Assembly (NCBI GenBank): GCA_900128395.1 | Contig: LT649284.1 | Coordinates: forward strand, 1 to 46,026 | DNA from: Stramenopiles sp. TOSAG23-2 | Lineage: Eukaryota | Length of the DNA stretch: 46,026 nucleotides | Direction of reading: 5' to 3' | Shown here: positions 2,718 through 43,750 of the stretch, piece after piece | Position numbering within the stretch: the first letter of the stretch is position 1 | Layout: each line of letters opens with the position of its first letter | Program-made: the position numbers and the translations under genes | The notes under the pieces: model-generated | Databases searched by the model: none | What the model was told of the DNA's origin: nothing | The model's input: only the letters and a program-made list of their open reading frames with translations

Positions 2718-3230
2718 GTCTTTGTCTTAACGATGAGTATACCAACGATGATATATATATATATATATATATAACAAAGATATTAATTCTTTTTCATATG
2801 TACACTGCACTTTTCCCTATTTCTTCACACCTATATTATGTTATGTGTTATTATTGATTTTATCTTTTTGCTTGGCGACTCTACTACTCAAGTGCTCAAC
2901 AACAACAACAACAGCTAATAAAACTTAAAAATTAAACTACTAAAAAAAAAATGAATGACCAGCAGTGCACTACTATAACTATAGACTTTCTTAGTTAATA
3001 TACAGACTTTTCGTCTTAGTAGTAATAATAGTAAGATATATACATATATATATATATATATACGTCGTGTACAAATACTATAGCATAAGTGTGTATATAC
3101 AAGATACACGCCTACGATATTATAAACTCTAGTTCCGTATGAGAATAAAGTGTATATTGGTTTGATAAATATATTATTATTAGGTAAATTTAAAATATCT
3201 TAGTCCAAGTCACCATTTGACAAGAAAACA

Positions 3231-5185
3231 ATGGCAGCTTTATTAAACCAAGATAATGCCGATAATAACAAGAATGCCAGCATTAATGGATTTGAAGATG
3301 ACATGCTTATGCTTTTCATTAACCCAACGACCAACGAAGTACACGAAGAATATAGGAAACTAGTACAAAATTACAATGAATGCAAAGAAGAAAAAGATTA
3401 TGCATCGTGGGTTATTCAAGTGGAGAAACAAATTGAAGAAAATCCATTTCCACTTATTCCTCTATGTCAAACATTAAGAACTATTGCAACAAAATTTAAA
3501 TCAACAACGACAGAACATTTAGCGGACATAACATTTGAGAAAATGTTGAATAAAATACCAACAATTAAATATTATCTAAAGCATGTACTTGATTTTGATG
3601 ATCTTTTGCATAAACCAAACAACGTATTTCATAATTTTTATGATGGTGGAAGAGGTGCTGAATTAGGCACTATTAAATATATGGCAGAGAAAACAAGACG
3701 CAATGGACGTGAAGTTATTGTTATTGATCCTCCCGATAGAAAAAGACACGATGGGCTTAACAAACATTACAACAATATTATCAATAAACTACAAGGCAAA
3801 AAGTTTCGGACGGATCGTATTGAATGTGTTGCCAAGTATGTATGCACTGCAATGGGTGGAACTAACGTTAATACAAATGATGTTGATAATCATATTGAAA
3901 AATTACGCAGTTCAACAAATTTTAGTACATTAGTTGGTGAAGTTTTATTAGGTTCAATTGAACTCGGTGTATGTCGCCATCGTTCTATTTTATTTAAATG
4001 GTTGTGCGACCACCCTGAAATAAACATACCAACACGATTAATACGTGGAGATTTAAGTGATGGTGGTCATGCATGGAATATATGTTTAATTGATAAACAA
4101 TATTTTCTAGTTGATGTGATGAATTTTTCATATACATCAACAAATCAATATTCTACTTTATTAATTGCAAATAATAGTAATAACGCCGCTGCATATAAAC
4201 GTACAGGTGGAAGTTTAGGTTTAGAAAGTGTTCGTGGTGGGTTGAGAGGAATTAATAGTACAAAAGATTTAATGCCAATTAATTATCATAGAAAAAATGG
4301 GGATTATATTGGTGATGGCACATTTGGAAAGGTTTATAAAGTGCGCCCAAAAACTAATCAAAATAAATCATATGCATTAAAGGAAATCGAAATTGCTAAT
4401 GCAACGCAGCGTAATAATGCTCTATTAGAGGTTAAAATCTTACAATGTGTTAATCATCGAAACGTAGTAAATCTAAAAGCGTCCTTTGAAGATGAAACTA
4501 GGGATGGTGCAAACGCTTTATATGTCTTATTAGAATTAGCAGAAGATAGTTTACAAGGTAAATTAGACAAGCATTTTAATCTGAAAAAACTTATTGATAC
4601 AAAACAAGTTGCTAAATGGCTACATCATATTGCACTTGGAATGGCATTTTTACATGAAGAAAATCGCAAGTTAGGTAAAGTCCAACGTATTTTCCATCGT
4701 GATTTAAAACCCGGTAATATATTGATATGTGCAAATAATGTAGCTAAAATCACTGATTTTGGTGTTAGCAAGTTATTAGAAGAATCACAACAATCACAAT
4801 TAATGAGTACACAGGGCACTCCAGTGTTTTGGTCTCCAGAATTAAATAACAGAAATTTTACTAGAGGTCATAAAGTTGATAATTGGGCTTTTGGTGGCAC
4901 TATTGGATATTGTTTAACAAATGAATGGCCACATCGTAGTGTAGAAAAGATGTATTCAGACAACCATTTCAATATAGGTAATAAGTTTAAACATACAATT
5001 ACTAATCAAAAAATATATAACGGATTAGTAAATGTCTTTAAATCATGTGTTGGCAATACATCGTGTGGTACTAAAAAGAAATGTGAACAAAATGTGAAAG
5101 AACGCAAAGAATTTAAAGAAATTGAAATTCAATTAAGAACAATATTATTTGATAATATAAAACGAAAAAAAGTTAATAATAATAA

Positions 5186-5222
<37 letters not shown>

Positions 5223-5786
5223 GTTAAAAAAAAGAAAGTGCAGGTTGATAAAAAGATTGCGAAAGATTTGTATAAGAAATATAGAAAAGAATTTCCAAAA
5301 GGTACGCCAATAGTATGTGCATGTGAAAAAGGACGTTTGGAGGATGTGAAAGTATTGATTACAGGCTATAATGATGTGAATGGTAGTAATGGTAATAATA
5401 ATAATAATAATAATATGACATTGAAAGAATACGTGAGTCAACTTGGTAAAAGTAGTGATGGTCGGGAATATACACCTTTAATGAAAGCTGCAATGTACGA
5501 ACATTTCCAAATAGTTAAATATTTGATTGAACGAGGTGAAGCTGATCCTAATATTACAGGTAGTTATGGAAGGAATGCATTACATTATGCAGCAAATTAT
5601 AACAAAAAGGATACAAAGTTGATTGAGTTCTTATTAACTAATATGCCTCTTAATAGCATTAATAAGAAGACCATCTACGGGGACACTCCCCTGGACAAGG
5701 CATATTTATATAATGAAAGTCCAATTCAACAAAAGAAGATTGATCTTATACGTTCAAAAGGTGGAAAACGGAAGAGTGAATTATAA
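3231..5786 (+). CDS. EDR1/CTR1-type transglutaminase-like domain + Ser/Thr kinase + C-terminal ankyrin repeats (intronless)
   Basis: GVCRHRSILFKWLCD..IPTRLIRG..GHAWN..LVDVM (EDR1 domain); GDGTFGKV, ALKEI, HRDLKPGN, DFG, GTPVFWSPE (kinase); TPLMKAA, NALHYAA, GDTPLDKA (ankyrin). Confidence 0.9.
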
Positions 5787-6262: not shown

Positions 6263-7355
6263 ATGTTATCACTCTTGTTGTTGCTTATAGCACTTACATT
6301 GACAACGTTTCTTCCACACGCAAATGCAAAGAAAGTATATACTACATGCCAAGAGTGCGTAAAGCAAAATCGATTAGGATGGTGCCCTATCCGTCGTAAA
6401 TGGTATGTAATTAACTCCAAAATTCCAAACAAAATAAATTCACCATGTATTCCATTATCATTCACACTAACAACAACAACCACCAACATACCCATCCACT
6501 CCACCCACACACACGCAAACCCAATCAACACCACAACCACACACAATCAACAGTGGCGGATTTGCAAATCAAAATTGTCGCAACGATCATACCGATACGA
6601 TGGTACCCGTAGTAAAAGAAGCACGTGATAATTTACTTGACATTTTATCAACATCAGAAAAGCATACTATAATCTTTGCATTTACAGAAATCTATGAAGG
6701 TGATATTAAACATAACAATCGTTTAGATGAATATTTAGAATTTTCATTGCAATTTCCATCGTATAAAGAATTATTATTTTTAAAAATCAATTGTACCATG
6801 TATCGATCCACTTGCAAGGATGTCTTTGTACAAGAAACAACAACAACAACAATTCATGGTATGTATTTATTTCCTGAACATGTTGTCCATTCCAATGAAT
6901 CATATACATTACAATTTGAATTTCAAAATACAATCAATGTCATCAATATATTAAAAACATTACGTGGTACATCGGAAACATTTAATAACTTAGCATCTGA
7001 TTTTACACGACAAAAATTCATGCGTTCCCATCAACAAAAACAACAACAACAACAGCAAAAAAGTGATGATAGTAAAGATGATGAACATATGATTTTAGAA
7101 GTTGCATTGAACATTATTGATAAAACAGAGGAATGCATTCAATATCAAACTACAATTGATTTATGTAATCGATATATCAAATGGATGAAATATTTTATAA
7201 CAAAAGATTCAAATGATTTAGGTTGTATAAGTGAAGCATTAAATGATGCAAATAAAAAATTAGGGGATGGGATGATTAATAGTAAACAAGATTATACAAT
7301 TGCAAGAGTTGAAATCGATATTTTAAATGCATTTGTTAAACCATTGTTTGGTTGA
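6263..7355 (+). CDS. Secretory-pathway protein: signal peptide, small Cys-rich (PSI-like) domain, thioredoxin-like region and ERp29-C-like helical domain; exons 6263-6402 and 6554-7355
   Basis: Hydrophobic leader MLSLLLLLIALTLTTFLPHANA. TCQECV..LGWCPIRRKCGG..C is completed by splicing the GTATGT..CAG intron (6403-6553). The C-terminal YIKWMK...EIDILNAF resembles the ERp29 C-domain. Confidence 0.6.
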
Positions 7356-10205: not shown

Positions 10206-10444
10206 AAATGAACTTTCAGATATACACTACTAAGTATTATACTTAAATACAGGATGTTATTTCTATTTCTGTACTTGTAAAATCGATGTCCCAAATTCCA
10301 AATTCTTCTTCTTCATCAAAATTCATCAAAATTCATCAAAAATAAGACTGGAAACAAGAGTTGATCAAGGTATAGGTTGATGCATGTAATATACAAAACA
10401 AAGAACAGAAATCAAAACAATTCAATTACGAGATATATCTATAC

Positions 10445-12894
10445 ATGCAATTGCAACGTTGTTTATTGAAAAATAAACATATTAATTATTTCTTCTTTCA
10501 ACAATTTCAAAAAAAAAATAAAAACTACGAACAATTATCAATATTCATTAATAATAAAACAAAACAACGTATTAAAAATAATAATATAGTAGCAATACGA
10601 AATTATTTAACAACTAATACATATAGAAACAACACATTAAAACCACGTATTATTACTACCACGAATATAGTCAATAATAATACGAAAGAATCAATTACAA
10701 AACTACATTACAATAATAATAATAATAATAAGAAGAAGAACGGATTATCCATTGTTCCGTCTTCTGTTATTTCTACTAATAGTAGTCGATCATTTCATAC
10801 AACAAAAAACAACAACATGTCGAATACATATCAAATACCAAATGGACGTGAACAATATCAAGCAACATATGAAAAATCAATGTCACCTGATTATTGGGCT
10901 GAATTAGCATCCAAAAATTTTCATTGGGAAACACCATTTGATAAAAATAATGTTTTATCATATAATTTTACAAAAAGTAAAGGTCCTATTTTTATTAAAT
11001 GGTTTGAAGATGGTGAAACCAATATATGTTATAATGCAGTAGACCGGTGGGCAAAACAATTTCCAGATAAAGCTGCATTTATTTATGAAGGTAATGATGG
11101 TGAATCACTTACATTATCATTCAAAGAATTGCAAGACAAAGTATGCCAAGTAGCAAATGTATTACGTGATACCTGTCATGTGAAAAAAGGTGATCGTGTA
11201 GCATTATATATGCCAATGTCATTGGAATTACCAATTACCATGTTAGCATGTGCACGTATAGGTGCAATACATAGTGTCGTCTTTGGTGGTTTTAGTGCAG
11301 AAGCATTAGCAAGTCGTATTATTGATTGTAAAGCAGATGTATTAATAACTGCAGATGCCGTCATGCGTGGTACGAAAGTTATCAATTTGAAATCAGTTGC
11401 CGATGAAGCAATGGATAAATGCAACGATGCTATTAAACATTGTGTAGTATTAAAACGTTTAGGTTCAAAAGCACCTGCAAATTGTCAAACAATGAAACAT
11501 GGTCGTGATATTAATTTTCATGATGCAATGAATCAAATGTCAACTACATGTCCAATTAGTTGGAACAATGCGGAAGATCCATTATTTATTTTATATACAA
11601 GTGGTAGTACGGGGAAACCAAAAGGTGTTTTACATACAACAGGTGGTTATATGGTATGGACACATACTACATTTGTAAATGTATTTAATTATGAAGGAAA
11701 TCCAAATGATGTATTTTGGTGCACTGCAGATTGTGGATGGATTACTGGACATAGTTATTTAACATATGGACCATTACTTGCTGGTTGTACTTCAATTGTA
11801 TTTGAAGGTGTACCAACACATCCAACACCAAGTCGATTTTGGGAAGTATGTGAAAAACATAAAGTATCTCAGTTTTATACAGCACCAACGGCGATTCGTT
11901 CATTAATGGCAAGTGGTGATGAACCAGTATTAAAACATGATTTATCCTCATTACGTATTTTAGGTACAGTGGGTGAACCAATTAATCCAGAAGCATGGAA
12001 TTGGTATGATCGTGTAGTGGGAAAAAGTAAATGTCCAATTGTCGATACATGGTGGCAAACGGAAACCGTACGTAAATTCTATTCTCCTAAACTTAAAAAA
12101 GATATTCTCTCTCTAACACGTCACTCATTCATCGTCACTCATTCATACGCTACGCTCCACAGGGTGGACACATGTTAACCCCAATTCCATATATGTGGGA
12201 ATTAGAACCAGGTAGTGCAACATTACCATTTTATGGTGTTGAACCTGCATTGATGGATCCAACTGCATCTACACCAACGGAAGTGGAAGAAGAAGGACAT
12301 TTAACCTTTAAACGTCCATGGCCTGGTATTATGCGAACGTTATGGGGTGATCAAGAACGTTTTGAAAAAGTTTATTTTTCAGAATTTGATGGATATTATA
12401 CAGCTGGTGATGGTGCTAAACGTGATTTAAATACTGGTTATTTAACCATTACAGGTCGTACCGATGATGTGATGGTAATAAGTGGCCATAATATTGGCAC
12501 GGCAGAAGTAGAAAGTGCATTTGTTGCGCATCCAAATGTTGCAGAAGCTGCTGTAGTTGGTATTCCACATCTAGTGAAAGGCAGTTCAATTTATGCATAT
12601 GTTACTTTAGTTGATAATATTCAAGGTGATAGTACAGTTATGGGTGAATTGAAAAAAGCTGTAAGTGATGAAATTGGTGCATTTGCACGTCCAGATACGA
12701 TACATTTCACAAGTGGCTTACCAAAAACACGTAGTGGTAAAATTATGAGACGTATTTTGCGTAAAATTGCTAACGAGGATTCATTTAAAGCGGTGTTAAA
12801 TGATAGAAGTGAATTAGGGGATACGAGTACGTTGGCAGAACCTGAAATTGTAGATGAATTGATTGTTGGGAGGAAAAATTTAGCGAGTTTGTAG
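10445..12894 (+). CDS. ACS: Acetyl-CoA synthetase (AMP-forming) with a probable mitochondrial presequence; exons 10445-12067 and 12163-12894
   Basis: LYTSGSTGKPKG, FWCTADCGWITGHSY, GTVGEPINPEAW, DTWWQTETGG (completed across the intron 12068-12162) and LPKTRSGKIMRRILRK. The N-terminus is basic, acid-poor and contains SRSFHT. Confidence 0.95.
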
Positions 12895-13113: not shown

Positions 13114-15135
13114 TTATGTCCATATCTCCATCCCTTTCACTTGTTGATACCCGTTTGATCCATCTCTTTTATATTGTTCTATAGCATTTAATTGTGATAT
13201 CATATTATCACTAAGTTGATTATTAGATAGGTACAAGTACTTTAATGTATTGTTTGTTTTTAATACATCAATAATACTTTGTATTCCACCATCATCAGTA
13301 ATATTATTATTAGATAGGTACAATCCCATTAATGTCTTGTTTGTTTTTAATCCTTCACCAATACTTTGTACATTAGTAATATTATTATTATCTAGGTACA
13401 ACCACTTTAATGTATTGTTTGTTTTTAATCCTTCACCAATACTTAGTACATCAGTAATATTATTATTACGTAGGTTCAATGTCGTTAATGTATTGTTTGT
13501 TTTTAATCCTTCACCAATACTTTGTACATTAGTAATATTATTATTATCTAGGTACAACCACTTTAATGTATTGTTTGTTTTTAATCCTTCACCAATACTT
13601 AGTACATCAGTAATATTATTATTACGTAGGTTCAATGTCGTTAATGTATTGTTTGTTTTTAACAATTCACCAATAGCTAATGCATCGTCATCTGTGAGAT
13701 TCCTTCCACCCAAATATACTTTCGTCTTCCCATCAAATTCAATTTTCCATCTCTCCAAATTTTTGAAATGTTGAAAATTACAACCGATATTAATTATACC
13801 TATAATCTGATCTGTTGTTGGTCGTTCTTTTGCCTCATATTTCAACATACTTTCGATTATATCTTTACCTCTATGTGATATATTTTTTTTATTGTATACC
13901 ATAATCTCCCTTCGTTGAGGCGAATGCCAGTTAGTACCTGCTAGAGGTATACAATTAAATAAAGTAACAAACAAAACCATTCCTAAACTATAAATATCAG
14001 CTGCCGTCGTATAAGTTCTCCCATACACTGCCACCTGCACCTCTGGCGCAACATAAGCTGGTGTATGTACAATTGTTTTTGCTTTTGATACATCCGTATT
14101 TTCTCTAGCAAATCCAAAATCAACTAAATACACTGTCCCATCTTTACGAATCATAATATTCTCAGGTTTAATATCACGATGCATCATATTATTTGAATGC
14201 ATATCATTCAAGATATTTACAAGTTGCATAAAAAAATCTAAAATAGCTTTCTCATTTTTAACGACGCCTTCGCCATCGTACCAATTAAACTGATTGTTAC
14301 ATATAGCATCAAATAAATCACAACCTTCAATATATTCTTGTACTTCATAAATGCGAGTATATTGTATTGTAACAATTTGATTTTGACCTTTTCTAACTTG
14401 TTTTGTCAGACCTTGTTCTACAAAATGATCTTCAATTTTCGGAATACCAGGTACATTACATGCAAGCCCTTGTTGTAAGGCTATAGTTTTCATAATACGA
14501 TCTTTGTGAGACGGCTTTAAGTTGTCGTATATTTTCATAGCACATGTTTCGCCTTCCGCTAATTTATAACATTTATGGACCGTGCCTTGACCACCGCTAC
14601 CTAATTTTTGATTTAAATCATAAATATATTTTTTATGCATATTGTTATGTACTTTTGCAAATTGGTTGATTTCATCCCATGTTCGGTTGGTAGCCGCATT
14701 TTTCGACTTACTATCAGAACGATAAATATACACACCTTTTAGTTTGATATCATGAAAGTAAATATCAACTGGTATATCAGTATTTTTGTTTTTTACAATT
14801 AACTCTCCTGGTTTTTCAGGAGGTATTGCTAATTTGTAATATTCATCTTTATTACTACGCTTAGAACAAACAATTTTCATTTCTTCGCTTGTATTTTCAT
14901 TTTTCACGTAATACTCAAATTGATTGATTTTGTTAATTGATGAAAACAAATGAGTTTTAGTGCATAAATGCAATTTTGCATTAACTGCAACAGGTTGATT
15001 CAATATCCTTTGTTTTTCATCCTTTGCTATACGCCCACCTGTTTTGATGGAAGTCAAGGTAAAAATAATTTTCTGTCTTTTTGATGATGATGAAGAAGAG
15101 GGGGCAAACGATGGTCGTTTTACTAACGACGACAT
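13114..15135 (-). CDS. Ser/Thr protein kinase (CAMK-like) with C-terminal 26-aa RI-like leucine-rich repeats (intronless)
   Basis: LGSGGQGTV, AMK, HRDIKPEN, DFG, TPAYVAPE; repeats LKTNNTLxxLxLxNNNITxV. The likely ATG is at 15135 (MSSLVKRP); the ORF is open to 15243. Confidence 0.9.
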   Translation of the reverse strand: MSSLVKRPSFAPSSSSSSKRQKIIFTLTSIKTGGRIAKDEKQRILNQPVAVNAKLHLCTKTHLFSSINKINQFEYYVKNENTSEEMKIVCSKRSNKDEYYKLAIPPEKPGELIVKNKNTDIPVDIYFHDIKLKGVYIYRSDSKSKNAATNRTWDEINQFAKVHNNMHKKYIYDLNQKLGSGGQGTVHKCYKLAEGETCAMKIYDNLKPSHKDRIMKTIALQQGLACNVPGIPKIEDHFVEQGLTKQVRKGQNQIVTIQYTRIYEVQEYIEGCDLFDAICNNQFNWYDGEGVVKNEKAILDFFMQLVNILNDMHSNNMMHRDIKPENIMIRKDGTVYLVDFGFARENTDVSKAKTIVHTPAYVAPEVQVAVYGRTYTTAADIYSLGMVLFVTLFNCIPLAGTNWHSPQRREIMVYNKKNISHRGKDIIESMLKYEAKERPTTDQIIGIINIGCNFQHFKNLERWKIEFDGKTKVYLGGRNLTDDDALAIGELLKTNNTLTTLNLRNNNITDVLSIGEGLKTNNTLKWLYLDNNNITNVQSIGEGLKTNNTLTTLNLRNNNITDVLSIGEGLKTNNTLKWLYLDNNNITNVQSIGEGLKTNKTLMGLYLSNNNITDDGGIQSIIDVLKTNNTLKYLYLSNNQLSDNMISQLNAIEQYKRDGSNGYQQVKGMEIWT

Positions 15136-15968
15136 TGTTTTATAATTTTGTTTTTGTCTTGTGTAATATTCGTTATATTTATATATGATTCTTTTATTTG
15201 TATATGTTTTTCTTTTTTCTTTTCTTTTTTCCTCCCTCAACATGTTTATCGATGTTTACATGTAATTTTCTTAGTTTTAATTATTATTAAATCTTCTAGA
15301 TAAAAGATAAAAGTGGAAGGTCCCGTATTGGAATAATTCATGTACCATAATATGCCAATTTCAATAAAATAACATTTATCTTCGCTATCAAGCCGGGCAA
15401 GGTAAATATAAATATTGACAATATCATAGCATTTAATGAAGTTTCCTGATGGTTTTCTAAGTACAATATATGGTATAGTTAGCTATAATATCATCTACGA
15501 CTATATTACTGTCATTTTAATTTTCCAATAAGATAAAAGGATTAGTACTTGTCAAAAATCCTTTACGAGTTAATTGTTAATACCCCTTGATCGGCAATTT
15601 ATAATGAAACATAATGTATATTATTAAGCATAGGGGTGGTTTAATTGTGCAGAGGAGGCATTTTAGACGGCAAATTGATATAGTTAGGAGTAGGGTTTGG
15701 TGTTTGTCTTTCGAGTTAAATAGCATGGGAATATCATAGCAGGGCAAGATACTAATACATTTCTCGTTGAAATTCAAGGTAGCAGGTACATACCACTACG
15801 AAACCAATGTCTCCTGTCTCCAAAATACATATATCAATAGAAAACATATAGAATACACAGATACATATGGGTAGATATATCCAAATAGAAGAAAAAAAAC
15901 AAAGAAAAACAAATCTAAAACAAAGAAAACATACCCCAAAACAATTATTAAAAACAACAAATACCAAA

Positions 15969-21903: not shown

Positions 21904-22646
21904 AAAAAAAACTTACACGAACATGTGTCAGGAGAGAGAGAAAAAGGGGAGGACGGGAATACTATTATGTGTGAAATGTACATCTGAGGTATATGTTATA
22001 TATAGTGTTCCATGTTTAGAAAGAAGAAATTTAAACGCATTTTCATTGTAAAGAAGTCTTCATAAAATTTTCAATGTTTTATTAAAATATAAAATATATA
22101 ATTCAGAATAATTTTAGTTTTTCCTCTTTTTTCTCTCCTTACCAGGGTTTCTTTTCTTTTCCTTTGTTATACCACATCAAGAACATGCTCATTAAACGAT
22201 CAACGAAAAATATTAAAATTGGATTTTATGTACAATTAGTCTGGTACCAAATTATGGCTATATTTGATAGGCATAAGTACAACATGTATGTAATCTACTA
22301 TGAAATAGGATAAATGGCATTTTGATGAACAACAAATTTTTAATGTTAATTTTAGTCAGAATGGTCAAAAATGTGTCTAGGTGTCTAGGTACAGTATTGT
22401 CCTATTTATAGACTATAAGCTTTAAACAATAAATAAAAATCAATTTTTTCAATTAATCTCGTGTGTACATTATATACTTGTATAAACATCATATAAAAAG
22501 CCACACTACGCACTACACGCACGTTTATAAAATGAATTTATTATTGGCCACCTTCAATCTCTGCCTTTAAACGATCTAATAAAGGTGATTTAGCTGGTTT
22601 CTTACCAATTTCCAAGCACTACACGCACGTTTATAAAATGAATTTA

Positions 22647-25580: not shown

Positions 25581-26033
25581 GGAGAGAGAGAGGTGTGGTG
25601 AGATTCCCGACGGAGGTGAAATGGCCCATAGAATAATCGTGTGGAAACAATATCAACACTATTGACACCATACCGATAATATATTAGTAAATATCCATAC
25701 AAATAAAAATCAACACACCACAAGGAGATCAAAGGAGAGGTGGTGGTGAGATTCCCTACGGAGGTGAAATGGTCCATTTAATATATGTGTGGAAACAATT
25801 ACAAACAAATATATACCATACCGAGAATATATTAGTAAATATCCATACAAATAAAAATTAACACCACAAGAGATCAAAGGAGAGGTGGTGGTGAGATTCC
25901 CTACGGAGGTGAAATGGTCCATATAATCATCGTGTGGAAACAATTACAAAATTATTGACACCACACCGATAATTTATTAGTAAATATCCATACAAATAAA
26001 AATTAACACCACTAGGAGATCAAAGGAGAGGTG
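25581..26033. repeat. Three diverged tandem copies of a ~145-148 bp non-coding unit
   Basis: The core GAGATTCCC(G/T)ACGGAGGTGAAATGG(C/T)CCAT starts at 25600, 25748 and 25893, and TATTAGTAAATATCCATACAAATAAAAAT occurs in each copy. Confidence 0.9.
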
Positions 26034-28619: not shown

Positions 28620-28936
28620 GATTTGAACGAAAAGAATTATTTAATTAGAGGAGAGTGTATAGGTTATTAGGTGTTATGAATGCCCGCTGGTGGAACTGCC
28701 CATGGGATTATGTGTCGTGCAGTGCCGTTGTGGTGCAATTTAGTAAAACCCTGTTTAGGTAAATATTATTTTATTTGATGTGTAATTTATATCTCTATAT
28801 ATCATACAGTTTAATGTTCCCTGCTGCATACCTTTTTCCTTGTTCCTTGTTTGAGACGATCCTATATATATAGTTTTGAATGAATAGAGAGAGAGATACT
28901 ATAAGAAAACAAAACAGATATATATATATACGCAAC

Positions 28937-30156
28937 ATGGCATCTTTAGCCACGAATGACAATGATGATAATAATGAGGATCAGTTAAAACCACCTACAA
29001 TAACAAGGCAACGGTCTACTAACGCAGCTACGTTGGAAGCATTACAAGAAAAACCAGAACGGACAATTATCGTTGGTATATTAGTTTTACCAGCTGGAGT
29101 GGAATCTGCATGCGGGATCATGTTAAATATGTTTCAATATTTGGATATTAGATCATTATGCAATGTGAAACGATCATCTTTGATACAACAATGTAGAAAA
29201 GCATTTGGATCAGATGATTTTGAACGTGTACGCGATGTAGCTTTGAGGCTTGATTATGAAGGTAGAAGAAGTATAAATGAGTTGATACTTTCACATCCAG
29301 CGAGAAGACTTTATTTATTAATTGAAAGATATAAACGAGAGTTTCCACGTGGTACACCTATCGTATGTGCATGTCGATATGGACGTATGAATGATGTAGA
29401 ACTATTTGTTTCTCTTCATCCTTTTCACAAGTATATTACTAATCGTGATGTGAATGGCTACAGAGATGATATGACATTAAAAGAATATGTGAATCAAGTC
29501 GGTCAATATAGTCGTGGTTGGGAATGGACACCTTTAATTGCAGCTGCAACAAACGAACATTTCCAAGTAGTTAAATATTTGATTGAACAAGGTGAAGCTG
29601 ATCCTAATATTGCAAATAGTGTTGGATGGAATGTATTGCATTGTGCATCATGGCGTGACAGAACGACTATTGATTTGATTTCCAAGTAGTTAAATATTTG
29701 ATTGAACAAGGTGAAGCTGATCCTAATATTGCACGTATTAGTGGTGGAATGAATGCATTACATTATGCAGCATGTAATAACAGAACGACTACTGAGTGGA
29801 TTGAATTGTTGTTAACGCATATGAATCTTGATAGCATTAATAAGAAGAACTGCGGGGGATACACTCCCCTGGACTTGGCATATCTTAATAATGATAGTCC
29901 AATTCGCCAAGAGATCATTGCACTTTTACGTTCAAAAGGTGGAAAAGCAAATNNNNNNNNNNNNNNNNNNNNNNNNNNNNNNNNNNNNNNNNNNNNNNNN
30001 NNNNNNNNNNNNNNNNNNNNNNNNNNNNNNNNNAATAATGATAGTCCAATTCGCCAAGAGATCATTGCACTTTTACGTTCAAAAGGTGGAAAAGCAAATA
30101 ATATTGATGAAAATGGTAGATATGTTAATGTAGGACCATTTGGAGACGATTATTAA
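28937..30156 (+). CDS. F-box-like/ankyrin-repeat protein, paralog B (assembled as a chimera of variants, with an N gap)
   Basis: Near-identical N-terminal half to 30641-31621; ankyrin motifs TPLIAAA, NALHYAA and YTPLDLA. The frame breaks at ~29678 and there is a gap at 29953-30033. Confidence 0.75.
29953..30033. other. Scaffold gap (81 N) flanked by a duplicated ~65 bp sequence
   Basis: Run of N; AATAATGATAGTCC...GGAAAAGCAAAT occurs on both sides. Confidence 0.98.
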
Positions 30157-30640
30157 AATAGATTAAAAAATTTTATAATAAGTATGTTTCTCTTGTTAAA
30201 TAATTTTATACAGATGATATGTTTGATTAAAGTGATAAAATGCATACAATTTCCTTCCCTCCCCTTTCATCTTTTTCATCCAAGAAAGTGTGTGTGTTCG
30301 GTCCCTCGTCTTCTATATATAGTCTTTGTTGAATGAATGATGTGCATTTGATTAATATTTAATATAGATAGAGATGATAGCAGGAAGGAAGGGGAAATAT
30401 ATATATATATACCAATACAACACATTCTTCTTCTTTAAAGTCTGTAGTAAAATCAGAAAATAAAAGAAAGATCAACATTATATTGTTCAAATATACATAT
30501 ATACATTTATATATTTTCGTATATTTTGGAAAATATAAAAATCACCACATCGACAAACAAATATTATATTATTATATTATAACTAAAGAAAGTACAAATT
30601 ATAAAAACAAAACAGACATATATATATATATACGTATAAC

Positions 30641-31621
30641 ATGGCATCTTTAGCCACGAATGACGATGATGATACCGTTGTTGATCAGTTAAAATCACTC
30701 GCAATAACAAGGCAACGTACAACTAACGCAGTGACGATTGAAGCGTTACAACAAACACGGGCACCACCACCAATTAAGATTGGTATATTAGTTTTACCAG
30801 CTGGAGTGGAATCTGCCTGCGGGATCATGTTAAATATGTTTCAATATTTGGATATTAGAACATTATGCAATGTGAAACGATCATCTTTAATACAACAATG
30901 TAGAAAAGCATTTGGATCCGATGATTTTGAACGTGTACGCGATGTAGCTTTGAGGCTTGATTATGAAGGTAGAAGAAGTATAAATGAGTTGAGACTTACA
31001 CATCCAGCGAGAAGACTTTATTTATTAATTGAAAGATATAAAAGAGAGTTTCCACGTGGTAAATATAAAAGAGATAATATACCAATACCTATCATATGTG
31101 CATGTGAATACGGACGTATGGATGATGTGCAATCATTTGTGAATCTTCATCCTTATCACAAGTATATTACCAATCGTGATGCGAATGGCTACAGAGATGA
31201 GATGACATTGAAAGAGATGGTGAATCAATTCGGTATCGATAGTGAAGGTGGTGCATTAGAATGTACACCTTTAATCATAGCTGTAACATGTGAACATTTC
31301 CAAGTAGTTCAATATTTAATTGAGCAAGGTGAAGCTGATCCTAATATTACAGATAGTGATGGGCAGAATGCATTATATTATGCAGCAATTCATAACAGAA
31401 AGAATACTGAGGTGACTGAACTGTTATTGGAGCATATTTCTCTTGAGAGCATTAATAAGAAGCAGTCCGGGGGATGCACTCCCCTGGACTGTGCATATTT
31501 TAATCGTGGTCCAATTCGTTTACAGATCGCTGCACTTTTACGTTTAAAAGGTGGAAAATCAAATTGGTTTGATGCAAATGGTATAATGGTAGGAGATGGT
31601 AATGGTGATTTAAATCATTAA
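30641..31621 (+). CDS. F-box-like/ankyrin-repeat protein, paralog C
   Basis: LPAGVESACGIMLNMFQYLDIRTLCNV resembles a degenerate F-box; ankyrin motifs TPLIIAV, NALYYAA and CTPLDCA. Confidence 0.8.
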   Translation: MASLATNDDDDTVVDQLKSLAITRQRTTNAVTIEALQQTRAPPPIKIGILVLPAGVESACGIMLNMFQYLDIRTLCNVKRSSLIQQCRKAFGSDDFERVRDVALRLDYEGRRSINELRLTHPARRLYLLIERYKREFPRGKYKRDNIPIPIICACEYGRMDDVQSFVNLHPYHKYITNRDANGYRDEMTLKEMVNQFGIDSEGGALECTPLIIAVTCEHFQVVQYLIEQGEADPNITDSDGQNALYYAAIHNRKNTEVTELLLEHISLESINKKQSGGCTPLDCAYFNRGPIRLQIAALLRLKGGKSNWFDANGIMVGDGNGDLNH

Positions 31622-33883: not shown

Positions 33884-35386
33884 ATGGCATCAACAAAGAC
33901 ATATCCAAATGGACAACCAAAGCCATTTTCACCACGGCGTATTGCATTATCGCGTGGGGTATTTGCTCATAATTATATCCATACCAATCTTAAACGACAT
34001 GATATTAATAATACAACAACAAATAATCAAACTGATAATGTTACGTTGAAATCGTATGTTGATTTAGCAGATGCATATGCAGCAATTGTAAGTAGACATC
34101 TCCTACGAACATCTCCAACGAAAAAAAACTTGACGCAATAAACTAACACTATGACATACATACATACATATCCATACATAGGGACAATATGAAATAGCAG
34201 AGGAAAAATATCGTAGTGCATTAACTGCATATAATGGATCAATTCATACAGCATCTATCATTTCACGTTGTTTATGTGGAATGGGAGCTGTTTGTACAGA
34301 TACAAGTAGATTTGATGAAGCAAAACACTATTTATTATTAGGATTAAAATTTTTAACAGCTGCAACTGAAACTGCTACAAATGCAAAAATAGCACGTGAA
34401 CAAATGGAAGAAACCATGATTAATGTGAATGATATCATGGAAAATATAAATAAAGATTTAGATGATTGGAAATTTGCTGATTTAATGAAAGCACGTACAT
34501 ATGGACATATGGCTGAATTATGTCGTGCAGAAGGTAATATATCTGGATTGATATCATGGAAAATATAAATAAAGATTTAGATGATTGGAAATTTGCTGAT
34601 TTAATGAAAGCACGTACATATGGACATATGGCTGAATTATGTCGTGCAGAAGGTAATATATCTGGATTAATATTGTATTTAAATAAAGCTATTGATACGA
34701 TGTCCATGTTAGAAAATGGCAATGAATTAGAAGCATATGCAGGTGAATTAGGTAATGAATTATTACAATTTTATTATCAATTAGGTACTATTTACATCAA
34801 TCAAGGTTTATGGAATCATGTTATAATTACATATGAATCTGCATTAGAAGTTGTAAAGAAACAATTAGGTACCGATAGTGTTGAATGTGCGGAATGTTAT
34901 TTACAAATTGGACGTGCATTGGAGGAAATTGATATAGAAAACAAAAACCATTTCAATGTAAAACGTAGTTGTAAAGTACTGCATCATGCTGGTAAAATAT
35001 TTGAAAAACAATTTGGTAAAGGACATATACGTACAGCTGCATGTTATGAAAAATTAGCAAAATTAACAGCAGCAGGTAATGAAACAGATTTAGATTTAGC
35101 GGCATATTATAGTAAAAAAGCATTAGATTCCGCAGAAGCTGCATTATTATTAGATCCATACAGTGAACAAAGTAGTATTGTATTATCACGATGTATTACA
35201 CGATATGCAAATATTAAATTTAAACGTGGCCAACCATGTAGTGCATGTGCATTGGGAAGCGAAGCGAGTATGTCCTTACGATATGCACAACCGGAAAATA
35301 ATATTGAACATTCAAAGATATTTGCAAATAATGCAAGGATGTGGAGTGAATTGCCAAAATTCAATTATTATCCAGCAAAACCGTGA
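33884..35386 (+). CDS. Tetratricopeptide-repeat protein (kinesin-light-chain-like TPRs); intron 34088-34181; frame broken by a 119 bp duplication
   Basis: YYQLGTIYINQG...YESALEVVKKQLGTDSVECAECYLQIG, FEKQFGKGHIRTAACYEKLA; GTAAGT..ACTAAC..TAG intron. Confidence 0.85.
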
Positions 35387-36315
35387 GGAGTGGAGGAGAC
35401 GAGGAGGGGTGTTGTGAGAGGAGTGCGTGGAGAGTAAGAGAAGGGGAAAAGGATGTGGAGTGAATTGCCAAAATTCAATTATTATCCAGCAAAACCGTGA
35501 GGAGTGGAGGAGACGAGGAGGGGTGTTGTGAGAGGAGTGCGTGGAGAGTAAGAGAAGGGGAAAGGAGTGCGGAGAGTTATTATCAACCACTATCCCCAGG
35601 GATATTTATTAAGTGATTAAGAGTGAGGTACGGATAGTGTCCAAAAACTAAAAATCTAATGAATAATAACATTTTTAACTCTGCATTAATGAAATTGTTT
35701 TTTACACTGCTTGCACTGACTGCTACACTAAAATAAAAATTCGTACGCGCTCTCGTACATGTCATATGTGGCCTCTATGATTGTTCCGTCTGAGTCATGC
35801 ACACATTTATCTACAATCATTCAAATACAATATAAATTCCATGTTTAATAAAATCTCTCTCAAGTCTTGCATGTATATGGGTTTTATATTTAATTACCCT
35901 CTTTGAACATAAACAAGTCCATTAATGAAATTGTTTTTTACACTGCTTGCACTGACTGCTACACTAAAATAAAAATTCGTACGCGCTCTCGTACATGTCA
36001 TATGTGGCCTCTATGATTGTTCCGTCTGAGTCATGCACACATTTATCTACAATCATTCAAATACAATATAAATTCCATGTTTAATAAAATCTCTCTCAAG
36101 TCTTGCATGTATATGGGTTTTATATTTAATTACCCTCTTTGAACATAAACAAGTCCATCATTGATCATTTTTTACATTGTATTGTACATGATTGAATTCA
36201 CTTTTTTAATATAAGATATATAATGTGGCATGTACATTGTATATAACATCATATAACATTTCTGTTTATTGATTAATTAATTAATTGCATCCTTCTGGTT
36301 TATTACTACCTTGAA

Positions 36316-36405
36316 ATAAAATCTCTCTCAAGTCTTGCATGTATATGGGTTTTATATTTAATTACCCTCTTTGAACATAAACAAGTCCATCATTGATCAT
36401 TTTTT
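36316..36405 (-). promoter_or_regulatory. Candidate SECIS element in the GILT 3' UTR (duplicated copy at ~36084-36173)
   Basis: On the minus strand: ATGAT (ATGA = 36393-36390), helix GGACTTGT..ATGT pairing with ACATGCAAGACT, unpaired AAA, apical mini-stem GGGT/ACCC, then TGAG (36330-36327). Folded by eye; the ATGA-to-AAA spacing of 17 nt is longer than canonical. Confidence 0.4.
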
Positions 36406-36651
36406 ACATTGTATTGTACATGATTGAATTCACTTTTTTAATATAAGATATATAATGTGGCATGTACATTGTATATAACATCATATAACATTTCTGTTTA
36501 TTGATTAATTAATTAATTGCATCCTTCTGGTTTATTACTACCTTGATATAAACTACATACATGTGATAGTAATTGCGACGGATCTTCCATTGGTTTTCCA
36601 TTTACAATTACCCATGGTGTTCCAATTTTAGATGTACCTAATTTGAATTAA

Positions 36652-37515
36652 TTAATTGCATCCTTCTGGTTTATTACTACCTTGATATAAACTACATACA
36701 TGTGATAGTAATTGCGACGGATCTTCCATTGGTTTTCCATTTACAATTACCCATGGTGTTCCAATTTTAGATGTACCTAATTTGATTGTTTCCATTGCAT
36801 TAAATTGATCTACACGATGCCCTTCGGTACCAGATTCACATTGGTTTAAAATATTTGCATCAATTTCAACTGCTTTTGCACATTCATCAACAGCACTTCG
36901 TTCTGCATTATTCATACCTTCAAAACATATTAGAAAATCTAAATATTTAGTTGGATAATGTTTTATTGCACAACCTTCCAAACGATTTGCCCAACATTCA
37001 TCCACTCCATGTTGACATAATATTTCACCATTAAAACAATTTGTTTCATTTTCGTTGATGTTGTTAGAATTTTCACTACATTTATTTATCCAACAATCCA
37101 TTCCTTTCTCTTTATCAAAATTAGGTGTATTGCATACATTGTAATATGCATTACCCCATGGATAAAATGTGAAATTCATAATGTCCAACACACCTTCTGC
37201 GTTGATTGTCTCATTTAATCCACCAGCGACAAAATTGTCGCATTCTGGTCATAATGCTTCTCCATAAAATTGGACTTGTACTAAATCCTCATTATTATTA
37301 ATATTATTATTTAATGTTGTCATTGCAAATGATGTATTAACAGCGACAAAATTGTCGCATTCTGGTCATAATGCTTCTCCATAAAATTGGACTTGTACTA
37401 AATCCTCATTATTATTAATATTATTATTTAATGTTGTCATTGCAAATGATGTATTAATAATAATAATACAACAATATGTTGCAATAACAATATTTTGGCA
37501 TATATTATATTTCAT
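36652..37515 (-). CDS. GILT: GILT (gamma-interferon-inducible lysosomal thiol reductase) family protein with an in-frame UGA at the active site; probable selenoprotein
   Basis: Signal peptide from ATG 37515, VQVQFYGEAL-TGA-PEC, then FYPWGNA, the GILT signature CQHGVDECWANRLEGC and TPWVIVNG. Confidence 0.9.
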
Positions 37516-37804
37516 GGTTGTTGTATTCTCAATCTGTTAGATGTATTATACGATAAAATCTAACAAAAATATCTTGATTGTGTTTGTTTTCCTGTTTTTT
37601 TATATATTTGTGCCTCTCTATGTACATCCCCCCGCCTACTATTCAACAATAGTAGTTTTAGTTTTGTTTATGGAAAAAAGTGCAACTTTAAAACTTACAT
37701 ATATATATTTGAATATTATAAGTGTGTATAAACAGAAAGGAGATATATATTAATATATATATAATTGAAATTTTGAAAACATATCATACATAATACAAGA
37801 TAAT

Positions 37805-37900: not shown

Positions 37901-38889
37901 ATGTATAGTGATTTAGATAATGCTCATGAAGGACAATCATTAAATAATGGTTCACCTTATGATAATAATAATAATAACGGCATGAATCCAAATTTTCCAA
38001 CAAATAAATTATTTTTTGGAATGAAAAAAACTGCTTTGGTGAAATATGTATGGACGTGGAATACTGGGATGTTATTGCCATTTTTTATTAGTGGATGATA
38101 ATAATAATAATAACGGCATGAATCCAAATTTTCCAACAAATAAATTATTTTTTGGAATGAAAAAAACTGCTTTGGTGAAATATGTATGGACGTGGAATAC
38201 TGGGATGTTATTGCCATTTTTTATTAGTGGATGTGCTACTGCAGGTGGAGAATTTCCAGGTGGTGTAGTATTTTCGTTTATATTTGTTACCTTCATTGCA
38301 ATTGCCGTATCACTATTTGGCTATCAAATTATGTTAAAGCCAGAATTTCGAAGTGATGAAAGATATGGCATGTTATTAGCATCTGTATTTTTTATGACTA
38401 TGTTTTCATTTAATGAAGCTGTTGATGCTGGGAGTTTTAATAGAAATTTTTACCAATTGCTTGGGGTCAATCTGCCAGCTGTACGTGCAACAATAGCATT
38501 TGCTGTGTTTTTATTTCTTGGATATTTAGTAGCATTATTTATGCTATACAATTGGAAAGAGGAACTAGAATGGAATGATGGATCTTCTTCACGTAATCTA
38601 TCAGATCTAGGAAGATCCTTTGATTCAATACATATCGATAATGGTGTATTTAGTAGCATTATTTATGCTATACAATTGGAAAGAGGAACTAGAATGGAAT
38701 GATGGATCTTCTTCACGTAATCTATCAGATCTAGGAAGATCCTTTGATTCAATACATATCGATAATGGTGATAATGAACGTAACATATCCGTACCAGATA
38801 TGAATCCTAATAACAATATCAACAGCAGAAGCCAAGCTGTTGGTAATAACAATGTTGCAAATGATGAATATTTAGAAACCGAGCTGTAA
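37901..38889 (+). CDS. Four-TM membrane protein of unknown function (frame broken by two duplications)
   Basis: Four hydrophobic segments. Collapsing the 136 bp and 124 bp duplications joins the three ORF fragments. Confidence 0.7.
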
Positions 38890-40630: not shown

Positions 40631-42985
40631 ATGAATATATTTATCATATTAACAATAATAACCATCATTTCTCTCCAACGAATCGAAGCCTTTGACGTAG
40701 CGACAGTGAAATGGGGAAAAGAACCGATAAAAGTTAGTAGCACTGGACCAGACTCCACATTACCTAATTTTTTTTTCATGGCTGGTGGAGAGGAAGGTGG
40801 AAGTATGTTTGATGGGTACGGGTACACCGGTGGTAAAGGGAATCCATCCCCATATGTACCACCTGATGGTTGTCCTGATGAAATATTTGAAAATACAATG
40901 AAAGATGAGCGAGTGCCACAACTCCCATGGGCATTACAAGAATCATGGGGATGTGAAAGGAAACCAACGGAAGTCGATGCTATTATAATTGAAAATGATT
41001 ATTTACGTGCTGCAGTTACACCTCAATGGGGTGGAAAAATTTGGAGTTTATATAATAAAAAATTGAAACGACAAGTATTTTACAATAACCCAGCACATCA
41101 ACCAGATAACATTGGATATAGAAAAGCATGGACATCTGGTGGATGTGAATGGAATTGGGCACCTGGAAAGATTGGACATTCCGTATTTACGGAATCACCA
41201 GTCTATACAGCTATCATTCCAAGTGACAAAGGTAATATAACACGTGTATGGGAATATGATCGACAAAATAATACCGTATGGTCCGTTGATATTTTAATTA
41301 TTGATGATGTTTTATTTGCACATCCAAAAATACGAAATCCAACCGATGTAGAAATTCCAGGTTATTGGTGGACATGCGTTGCTATGCCAGTAACGGATAA
41401 TACACGTATAATTACACCAGCGGAAGCAAGTTTAACACCATGCACACCATGGCCTGCAGGTGCATGGACTAATCCAAATACTACATTTCGTGGAAGTAGT
41501 CTTGGTACATGCAGGGAGGAAGATACGTGTGCATGGCAACAAGATATGTCATGGCTTGGTAATATTCCACATCCACATGATTTTTTCATGATGATTTCAC
41601 CAGAAAAAGTACCATACATCACACATGTTACCGATGATGGTTTTGCAACCATTCATTCCCATCCAAAAAAAATGAAAGGAACGAAATTTTTCACCTGGGG
41701 ACAATCTGGAATGGGCGCATTTCAACAAGATTTCATGTCTGCATCTGATTATGAAAATCCAAAATGTGATAAACCATATTATGATCCATATTGCGAACAT
41801 TATGAACATGAAGGCCGTTATACGGAATTGCAGATTGGACCGGCACCATCACAAATGCATACATTTCCAATTGGTAAAAATTCATCTTATGAATGGACGG
41901 AATGGTTTAAATCATGGAATAATGGAGATATTAGTAAACTTCATTCATCTCATTATAACGATGCGGTTGATGAGGTCAATAAATGGATGGATTCAAAAGA
42001 AGGAATGTCGCAAACTGAATTGGATGAAATTGACCAATTTATGGAGCAAATGGCTGATGTGAAACCTTTGAAAGAAAATATTGTCTATGAAGGTATGCCA
42101 TGGGGTGGTTTACGTGAAAAATTAGTTGGCCAACCAATCATTGCAAATGGTGCAACGCCATTTTTCCCGCCAAAATATACAGAGGAAACACGTTGTTGGT
42201 TAGATTTAATCGTTAATGGTACATTTAGTGAAGAGACGCTACAATTAAACCCAATTAATTTTGAAATAAGTGATGAATGGGTTGCATTACTACAAAAATC
42301 TATTGCAAATGGACATTCAACATGGTTGCATTATTTATTTTTAGGTACAGTTGATTTGGAAAAAGGAAATGCCAAAAGTGCACGAGAGCTATTCATTAAA
42401 TCATTTACGTTAAAAAAAAGTGTTCATGGTGCAAGAAATCTTGCAATATTTTCAAGTACAAAAACTGAAGCGATTGATTATTACAAACAGGCATGGGATA
42501 TATGGAAAACTCTGGATCCAAACGTTGATGTTGTAGTAGAACGATTAGGTGCAGATCTTACTAGTGAATTTGCAGGTTGGTTAGTTGGAAATGAAGAGTG
42601 GGCGGAATTAAATGCACTGTTGAACGATATAAAATCGAATGGTATCTCTTCATCAATGAAAGAGAATTTTTTAAACCAAGATAAATTATTGCATGCACAA
42701 GCTTGTATAGCAAATCAAAATAAAGATTATGATACAGCAATTAAAATCTTAACCAAAAATTGCTTTCCTACATATGGATCGTTAAGAAATGCCTTGATTC
42801 AATTATGGTTTGAAGCCAATGTCATAAAAGCAGAAACAAAGAAAGGCAGTTCATTGTCCGTATTAGAAACTGTACATTTAAGAAGAGAACTTGGATGTGG
42901 CGGTGATTCCGAAACAACTTTATCCTATAAAAATAATTGTATCAGGGGTCCACCGAATCTAGGATATGCTTATGGTCGTCTATGA
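40631..42985 (+). CDS. Secreted DUF5107-domain protein with TPR-like C-terminus (intronless)
   Basis: Signal peptide; IIENDYLRAAVTPQWGGKIWSL...FYNNP...AWTSGGCEWN, RVWEYDR, YWWT, GTKFFTWG and YTELQIG are typical of DUF5107. Confidence 0.85.
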   Translation: MNIFIILTIITIISLQRIEAFDVATVKWGKEPIKVSSTGPDSTLPNFFFMAGGEEGGSMFDGYGYTGGKGNPSPYVPPDGCPDEIFENTMKDERVPQLPWALQESWGCERKPTEVDAIIIENDYLRAAVTPQWGGKIWSLYNKKLKRQVFYNNPAHQPDNIGYRKAWTSGGCEWNWAPGKIGHSVFTESPVYTAIIPSDKGNITRVWEYDRQNNTVWSVDILIIDDVLFAHPKIRNPTDVEIPGYWWTCVAMPVTDNTRIITPAEASLTPCTPWPAGAWTNPNTTFRGSSLGTCREEDTCAWQQDMSWLGNIPHPHDFFMMISPEKVPYITHVTDDGFATIHSHPKKMKGTKFFTWGQSGMGAFQQDFMSASDYENPKCDKPYYDPYCEHYEHEGRYTELQIGPAPSQMHTFPIGKNSSYEWTEWFKSWNNGDISKLHSSHYNDAVDEVNKWMDSKEGMSQTELDEIDQFMEQMADVKPLKENIVYEGMPWGGLREKLVGQPIIANGATPFFPPKYTEETRCWLDLIVNGTFSEETLQLNPINFEISDEWVALLQKSIANGHSTWLHYLFLGTVDLEKGNAKSARELFIKSFTLKKSVHGARNLAIFSSTKTEAIDYYKQAWDIWKTLDPNVDVVVERLGADLTSEFAGWLVGNEEWAELNALLNDIKSNGISSSMKENFLNQDKLLHAQACIANQNKDYDTAIKILTKNCFPTYGSLRNALIQLWFEANVIKAETKKGSSLSVLETVHLRRELGCGGDSETTLSYKNNCIRGPPNLGYAYGRL

Positions 42986-43750
42986 TCTAAATTTGATACT
43001 CCCTGTGCGTATGAAAAAACTGTATACTTCGTATTATGTAATTTTTTGTGTGTGAATGATGTAGTGCGTGAAAATTATGGTCGTCTATGATCTAAATTTG
43101 ATACTCCCTGTGCGTATGAAAAAACTGTATACTTCGTATTATGTAATTTTTTGTGTGTGAATGATGTAGTGCGTGAAAATGTGTGTGAACAAAGTGGCGA
43201 ATGAAGTATGAAGTCATGAAAAGGCTATAAAGTTACGTATGAAACACGAAATAATTAAAAAATACGTGAGTACGTTTCGTACTACGTTTAAAATACGAAT
43301 TTTTATATCATATGACATACGAATTCGTAGGTGTAAATGTGAAAGAGAGAAAAAGAGAAAAGAGAGGGAGAATTAAAATGTGGTGAAAAATGGTAAAACA
43401 TGATGTGTGTGTGTGTGTATTTTGTGTTATCATGTTATGCATGTAATCTGTAATCTGCATAAAAAAATTACGAAAATAAAAGAAACGTTTTTCATTCTCA
43501 GGTAAATAAAAATTATTTTTTTATTTTTTTTTATATAATATTTTCATATCATACTTTTCATTTATTAGACATATGATATTAAATACTCGTATCATTCCCT
43601 TAATATATTGTAATATTTACCCCCGAAAAAACACTTTTATTTGTGTGGCTACTGGCTATTAAAATCACGTGGTTCATTTTGTTCGATGCCTTTCAATACT
43701 TGAAGTACATCATTATATTCAATTGATGAGACTTCGACATTTTTGTGTGG

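Follow-up and report, generated by a model that had tools for sequence, protein, structure and literature searches.

A GILT-family gene of a marine eukaryote in which the catalytic CxxC motif begins with an in-frame UGA, very probably read as selenocysteine

The GILT gene and its neighbours

The stretch of DNA analysed here, which we call the window, has a length of 46,026 nucleotides. Its minus strand contains a reading frame which extends from an ATG at 37515 to a TAA at 36654-36652 and which, if TGA is translated as selenocysteine (Sec, U), encloses the sequence VQVQFYGEAL-TGA-CCA-GAA-TGC. The features of this gene are as follows.

36652..37515, minus strand: GILT coding sequence; the assembled form has 287 codons and a stop, with 39 of the codons belonging to an artefactual repeat
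37441..37515, minus strand: N-terminal hydrophobic segment MKYNICQNIVIATYCCIIIINTSFA, recognized by eye in the translation and conserved in the metagenome loci L002 and L003
37366..37368, minus strand: TGA codon 50, first position of UPEC (37368-37357), as read from the sequence; this copy lies outside the coverage by contigs of sequencing runs
37249..37251, minus strand: TGA codon 89, second copy, with UPEC at 37251-37240; the sole TGA copy with independent contig coverage
36652..36654, minus strand: TAA stop codon of the GILT gene, as read from the sequence

An earlier note on this DNA had placed the start of the frame at ATG 37515 and the TGA at codon 50 (37368-37366), and these coordinates are correct according to both sequence and translation. 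The note had also stated that the list of open reading frames misses the N-terminus of the gene. This is indeed the case: plain ORF finding breaks the gene into an ORF of 49 amino acids (37366..37515) and an ORF of 179 amino acids (36652..37191). Translated with TGA as U, the assembled frame gives 287 residues with U at codons 50 and 89. In the single-copy reading, which contains the 117-bp unit described below only once, the protein matches the Pfam family GILT (PF03227) with an E-value of 3e-20 and a score of 73 bits, the cut-off being 22.4. The cysteine framework of the GILT domain is present: in an alignment of 20 sequences, the cysteines C87, C101, C108, C115, and C123 are invariant, and C138, C153, C167, C215, and C227 are nearly invariant. 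The segment MKYNICQNIVIATYCCIIIINTSFA is probably a signal peptide, judged by eye. The metagenome loci L002 and L003 encode an uninterrupted GILT orthologue of 244 amino acids with a single U, and the true protein of the window is predicted to comprise about 248 residues and a single Sec. The gene has no intron, since with the duplicates left aside the RNA contigs and the DNA are colinear.

Several neighbouring genes were inspected as well. An acetyl-CoA synthetase gene (10376-12894, plus strand) falls into two frames which overlap, 10376-12178 and 12097-12894; the cause is presumably a short intron or a fault of the assembly. Homologues of the synthetase include metagenome proteins at 80%, 68%, and 64% identity; named homologues reach at most 58% identity and come from such different groups as green algae, a moss, a cryptophyte, and bacteria. 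A common module whose C-terminus is ankyrin-like (FPRGTPIVCAC...GR..DV ... HFQVVKYLIEQGEADPNI) occurs in three genes on the plus strand (3204-5786, 28880-30156, and 30605-31621). Two of the three are paralogues lying next to each other, one gene also encodes a fused protein kinase domain, and the middle one contains a run of N and a duplicated end. The protein kinase gene at 13114-15255 (minus strand) possesses C-terminal leucine-rich repeats (LKTNNTL..L.L.NNNITD), which correspond to a 78-bp tandem array at 13219-13675. No tRNA gene was found in the window.

Assembly duplications

The GILT gene and the sequence behind it are affected by the following duplications, for which no strand is assigned.

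37224..37457: exact tandem duplicate of 117 bp, 2.0 copies, 100% identical, resulting from unmerged overlapping assembly blocks
36083..36785: two further exact artefactual duplications (139 bp, two copies, 36507-36785; 232 bp, two copies, 36083-36552), which repeat the end of the coding sequence and the start of the 3' UTR

These are part of a more general pattern. Between positions 22510 and 44941 of the window, two-copy tandem arrays recur every few hundred bases: 11 of them are 100% identical, with periods of 102-236 bp, and another two are 99% identical. A run of N is located at 29953-30033. Several genes are cut by duplications, for example at 34430-34673, 37959-38233, 38523-38770, and 42970-43180. 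An intergenic 145-bp tandem repeat at 25588-26033 (3.1 copies, 88% identity) looks real, unlike the exact two-copy arrays.

A comparison by blastn with three loci from other assemblies, L001-L003, showed that at every block boundary of the window the position in the locus steps back by about 100-240 bases, a pattern typical of overlapping pieces that were placed one after the other. The three loci carry the GILT motif once and do not contain the 117-bp duplicate. Contigs of individual sequencing runs give the same picture. Where the window has 150 letters across the 117-bp repeat, the X1 contig has 33 and the X5 contig 30; each of these contigs contains one copy of the unit. Moreover, the contigs of X1, X12, and X5 join position 36274 to 36646, skipping 371 bases, and the X3 contig joins 36506 to 36646. 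The 117-bp duplicate, the second TGA, and the 39 extra codons are an assembly artefact. The earlier note had described the TGA as being repeated at 37251-37249 within a 117-bp duplicate; the repetition is present in the assembly, but the duplicate itself is artefactual according to L001-L003 and the X1, X5, and X3 contigs. Consequently, the gene contains a single TGA and not two. The false tandem duplications of this assembly would mislead any annotation of the region.

The TGA at the catalytic position

The position of the TGA within the domain was determined by aligning the protein with GILT sequences. UPEC comes to lie over CGAC of the solved GILT structure 6nwx (EAL-U-PEC over ESL-C-GAC, E-value 2.6e-24), such that U coincides with the first Cys of CxxC; it also aligns with CPNC of the database homologues P0008 and P0018. 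A search for homologues with TGA or Cys in the same column, which had been suggested as a check, yielded 73 related metagenome loci. In 51 of them the codon is TGA, in 17 it is TGT or TGC, and the region of the site is absent in 5. The assignment proposed in the earlier note, namely that TGA replaces the first Cys of the GILT CxxC, is thus in agreement with the structure as well as with the 17 Cys loci. Among the 64 loci matched by one pattern, the number of distinct sequence contexts is 43 for TGA and 12 for Cys.

All 51 TGA loci have [FWY][YF][GSA]E-x-x before the TGA and, in the same frame, PxC and the GILT domain after it, with UPVT in place of this pattern in L045 and L049. The motifs found are UPEC, UPGC, UPMC, UPAC, UPPC, and UPVT. 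In L045 and L049 (LVYGEAGUPVTR) there is no resolving Cys three residues past the Sec. The TGA-carrying loci stem from many organisms which differ widely in G+C content, and three of these loci terminate in poly(A).

This conservation has to be weighed against the plainest reading of the letters, according to which translation ends at the UGA and the product, if there is any, consists of the downstream 175-179 residues, started from an internal Met or GTG and devoid of signal peptide and CxxC. Exactly this piece is what ORF callers deliver: the public call P0002, which is 99% identical, comprises 175 amino acids and begins with MNFTFYPWGN, i.e. past the U column, and 14 other homologues are truncated as well. 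It also speaks for termination that a SECIS element was not proven by the Rfam, folding, HMM, and covariance-model searches described below. However, FYGEA-x before and xxC after the TGA are conserved in frame in the 51 TGA loci and match both the Cys forms and 6nwx, and a piece without signal peptide and active site would not work as a GILT. The truncated calls themselves are the artefact to be expected at a Sec codon: of the 19 homologues found by protein search, 15 begin past the U column, two have W, and two have C at this position, and the large number of late starts is expected because gene callers stop at TGA. The orthologues P0003-P0005 have 68-71% identity. We therefore regard termination at the UGA as very unlikely.

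A second reading is that TGA is a sense codon throughout the organism, coding for Cys as in Euplotes or for Trp, which would make the motif a plain CPEC or WPEC. The two database homologues printed with W at this column would fit, as would the AT-richness of the genome, a common trait of lineages with variant codes. Yet in L004, the locus matching P0006, the codon behind the W is TGA, and the TGA loci come from many organisms of very different G+C content. Within the window, the ends of 22 long frames were checked: TGA terminates 7, TAA 10, and TAG 5. The frames ended by TGA are those at 7355, 9445, 28619, and 42985, which had already been cited as ordinary stops arguing against a reassigned code, and in addition those at 35386, 38702, and 17157 (minus strand). 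This check of frame ends agrees with the absence of a code reassignment. One of the genes terminated by TGA is the neighbouring TPR gene; in L002, its orthologue has the same last residue and, in our reading, likewise a TGA. Genes of up to 860 codons are free of in-frame TGA under the standard code, and no internal TGA was found in any other credible coding frame of the window, the remaining TGA-containing frames being antisense or non-coding junk. A sense TGA is exceedingly unlikely; the DNA belongs to a marine eukaryote which is rich in A+T (G+C about 30%) and uses the standard code.

The visible faults in the assembly of the window (an N run and 13 near-exact tandem duplications of two copies each) might raise the suspicion that the TGA arose by an error in sequencing or, recently, by a nonsense mutation in a decaying pseudogene. 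This is extremely improbable given that the TGA also occurs in L001-L003 and in the contigs of one RNA run and one independent DNA run, that 48 further loci have it at the homologous codon, and that the remainder of the frame is open and conserved.

The evidence from independent assemblies is as follows. L001-L003 are 97-98% identical to the window and carry the TGA. At 37249-37251, the contigs of X1 (DNA), X5 (DNA), and X3 (oligo-dT RNA) contain no alternative letter, the coverage extending over 36646-37283; X1 is possibly the source run of the window itself, and X5 is another DNA run. The X3 contig, with a length of 773 nt, spans 36395-37283 minus the artefactual duplicate and leaves the TGA unchanged. 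A poly(A) contig of X12 covers the coding sequence up to 37240 as well as the 3' UTR; as it ends 9 nt short of the codon, it is silent on the TGA. RNA contigs from two studies extend out of the coding sequence into the 3' UTR, although contigs from RNA libraries can hold DNA and do not prove transcription. The stretch is present in marine or seawater metagenome runs of 13 studies, and six rows are RNA.

Taken together, the position of the TGA, the relatives, the independent assemblies, and the genetic code leave in practice no room for an error of sequencing, for a pseudogene, or for a reassigned code. As far as sequence comparison can tell, the gene is very probably a genuine selenoprotein gene, in which UGA is recoded to Sec at the nucleophilic position of the GILT CxxC.

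3' UTR and SECIS candidates

After removal of the duplicates, the 3' UTR comprises about 540 nt and ends at the convergent TPR gene. Two registers of a putative SECIS element were considered, which are mutually exclusive.

36080..36176, minus strand: SECIS candidate (c), AUGA core at 36161-36158, 3' GA at 36097-36096, starting about 120 nt past the stop in the true downstream context
36158..36201, minus strand: alternative SECIS register (b), GUGA core at 36201-36198, 3' GA at 36159-36158, cores UGAA/UGAU, assigned by eye

Candidate (c) forms an imperfect helix of 13 pairs, with AAA 17 nt past the core and a GGG/CCC mini-stem. It falls within the RNA contigs of X12 and X3; the core of its identical second copy, which is artefactual, is located at 36393-36390. 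The published SECIS consensus consists of the core UGAN/KGAW, helix 2, and unpaired A's (PMC3753652). Measured by this consensus, the cores of candidate (c) are UGAU and UGAG, and the 3' core UGAG departs from KGAW (PMC3753652). Candidate (b) fits UGAN/KGAW, but has a G instead of the usual A ahead of UGA; a scan for GTGA paired its GUGA core with another 3' GA (36137) and did not confirm this register. Strains differ at 36186-36187, a site just upstream of (c) and in the loop of (b): two bases are omitted in X5, and X12 has a C>T exchange. L002 likewise does not contain the two bases.

Several relatives have similar elements (AUGA-Y-RG ... Y-N-GA) 50-250 nt past their stop codons. With a relaxed scanner, SECIS-like hairpins were found in 11 of 37 3' UTRs of TGA loci, compared to 8 of 185 shuffled sequences (Fisher p 2e-5), 2 of 37 reverse complements (p 0.012), and 1 of 5 Cys loci. 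A second descriptor, which picks the element of the window too, gave 7 of 36 UTRs of TGA loci versus 7 of 360 shuffles, 1 of 36 reverse complements, and 0 of 4 Cys loci. Both descriptors are insensitive, as they miss elements of L006, L007, L010, and L011 which are convincing by eye; the relaxed scanner additionally misses those of L004 and L017, and the second descriptor misses that of L035. Elsewhere in the window, 16 ATGA sites pass the relaxed scanner and 9 sites pass the second descriptor.

Other searches did not single out the element. The first, strict SECIS scanner proposed no candidate in the UTR of the window and very few in the relatives. The Rfam SECIS models gave no match in 35500-37600, in 36060-36300, or in 20 homologue loci. 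As a control, the canonical-looking element of L035 reached only 15.6 bits on SECIS_1, the gathering threshold being 35, and the Rfam negative therefore says little. The folding energy of candidate (c) is no better than that of shuffled sequences (z 0.62; 148 of 200 shuffles fold at least as well). A MAFFT alignment of the candidate elements of 10 relatives was out of register at the 3' end, and in an alignment of five sequences only three helix pairs were in register. In a search with an nhmmer profile built from the candidates of five relatives, the element of the window ranked 11th-12th, with E-values of 15-17. A covariance model based on L019 and L022 matched only its two seeds among 41 loci; in the window it produced 36 matches at chance level, none of which was located at candidate (c). 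The window's own SECIS candidate is thus weakly supported.

Proposed mechanism

The predicted product is a GILT-family thiol reductase of the secreted or lysosomal type with about 248 residues, in which U-P-E-C would arise from recoding of the single UGA. Recruitment of the Sec machinery would fall to a 3' UTR SECIS, probably the element which begins about 120 nt past the stop. As in other oxidoreductases of the UxxC type, the selenol or selenolate of the Sec may then attack substrate disulfides, after which the selenenylsulfide would be resolved by the Cys at +3. The CxxC motif of GILT serves to reduce disulfides of proteins within acidic compartments, and the pKa of Sec is far below that of Cys. 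Owing to this low pKa, the nucleophile of the enzyme would stay reactive in acid lysosomes or phagosomes.

The frequency of TGA among the relatives invites a more far-reaching proposal, which we make tentatively and with more doubt than confidence: the Sec form may be the prevailing form of GILT in marine protists (51 of 68 loci covering the site, 43 distinct contexts) and may have been kept since the selenol stays reactive at lysosomal or phagosomal pH. It would then be hidden almost completely by public gene calls that are truncated at the UGA and, in this AT-rich lineage, may use an off-consensus SECIS (AUGA-Y...Y-GAG) with a long helix 2, which standard models miss.

Comparison with known systems

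A Sec-containing GILT has been described before. Zhang and Gladyshev (2008, PLoS Genet, PMC2398784) introduced it from the Global Ocean Sampling metagenome as 'a new eukaryotic selenoprotein family', with three sequences, one of them with a SECIS, and no known host. Like those sequences, the gene of the window is eukaryotic, originates from marine plankton, and has an in-frame TGA which replaces the Cys of homologues; in the ocean data, one sequence has a eukaryotic SECIS in its 3' UTR (PMC2398784). The gene of the window belongs to the same family. Unlike the ocean reads, it sits in a 46-kb nuclear contig together with its neighbours. Named algae complete the picture: GILT is listed among the least widely distributed Sec proteins of algae, next to families such as PDI_a, DSBA, SELENOW, SELENOT, and SELENOH (PMC7539508), and a 'GILT superfamily protein' is named among the selenoproteins of Aureococcus anophagefferens (PMC5917014). 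The statement in the earlier note that Sec-GILT is listed in a few algal selenoproteomes is right (PMC7539508, PMC2398784, PMC5917014). The gene of the window shares the Sec form of GILT with the algal and Aureococcus cases (PMC7539508, PMC5917014), but in contrast to these its organism has no close named relative; the best named matches of its acetyl-CoA synthetase have at most 58% identity.

Since Sec-GILT has already been published, the novelty of the gene is low, and it does not change what is known of selenoproteins as such. A literature search found no biochemical study of a Sec-GILT. What the window adds for this family, first seen as anonymous ocean reads, is a place in a genome with its neighbours, evidence from transcripts, and near-identical copies on three contigs from metagenomes. 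It also makes evident that public gene calls for Sec-GILT are routinely truncated at the Sec codon, as 15 of 19 database homologues start past it.

With the GILT protein IFI30 (PDB code 6nwx), the protein of the window has in common the Pfam GILT domain, the conserved pattern of cysteines, and the place of the active-site motif (CGAC versus UPEC). The C-terminal 124 residues align with an E-value of 1e-19, and the N-terminal third shows low similarity (16 bits). It differs from 6nwx by the Sec at the first active-site position and by an Asn-rich insert, SENSNNINENETN.

In thioredoxin-fold selenoproteins of the UxxC/CxxU type, Sec replaces the nucleophilic Cys, and the resolving Cys is located three residues on. 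The GILT of the window resembles these proteins in that it has a predicted Sec in place of the nucleophilic Cys, followed by the resolving Cys; unlike the general UxxC/CxxU selenoproteins, it belongs to another family, and its compartment is presumably acidic.
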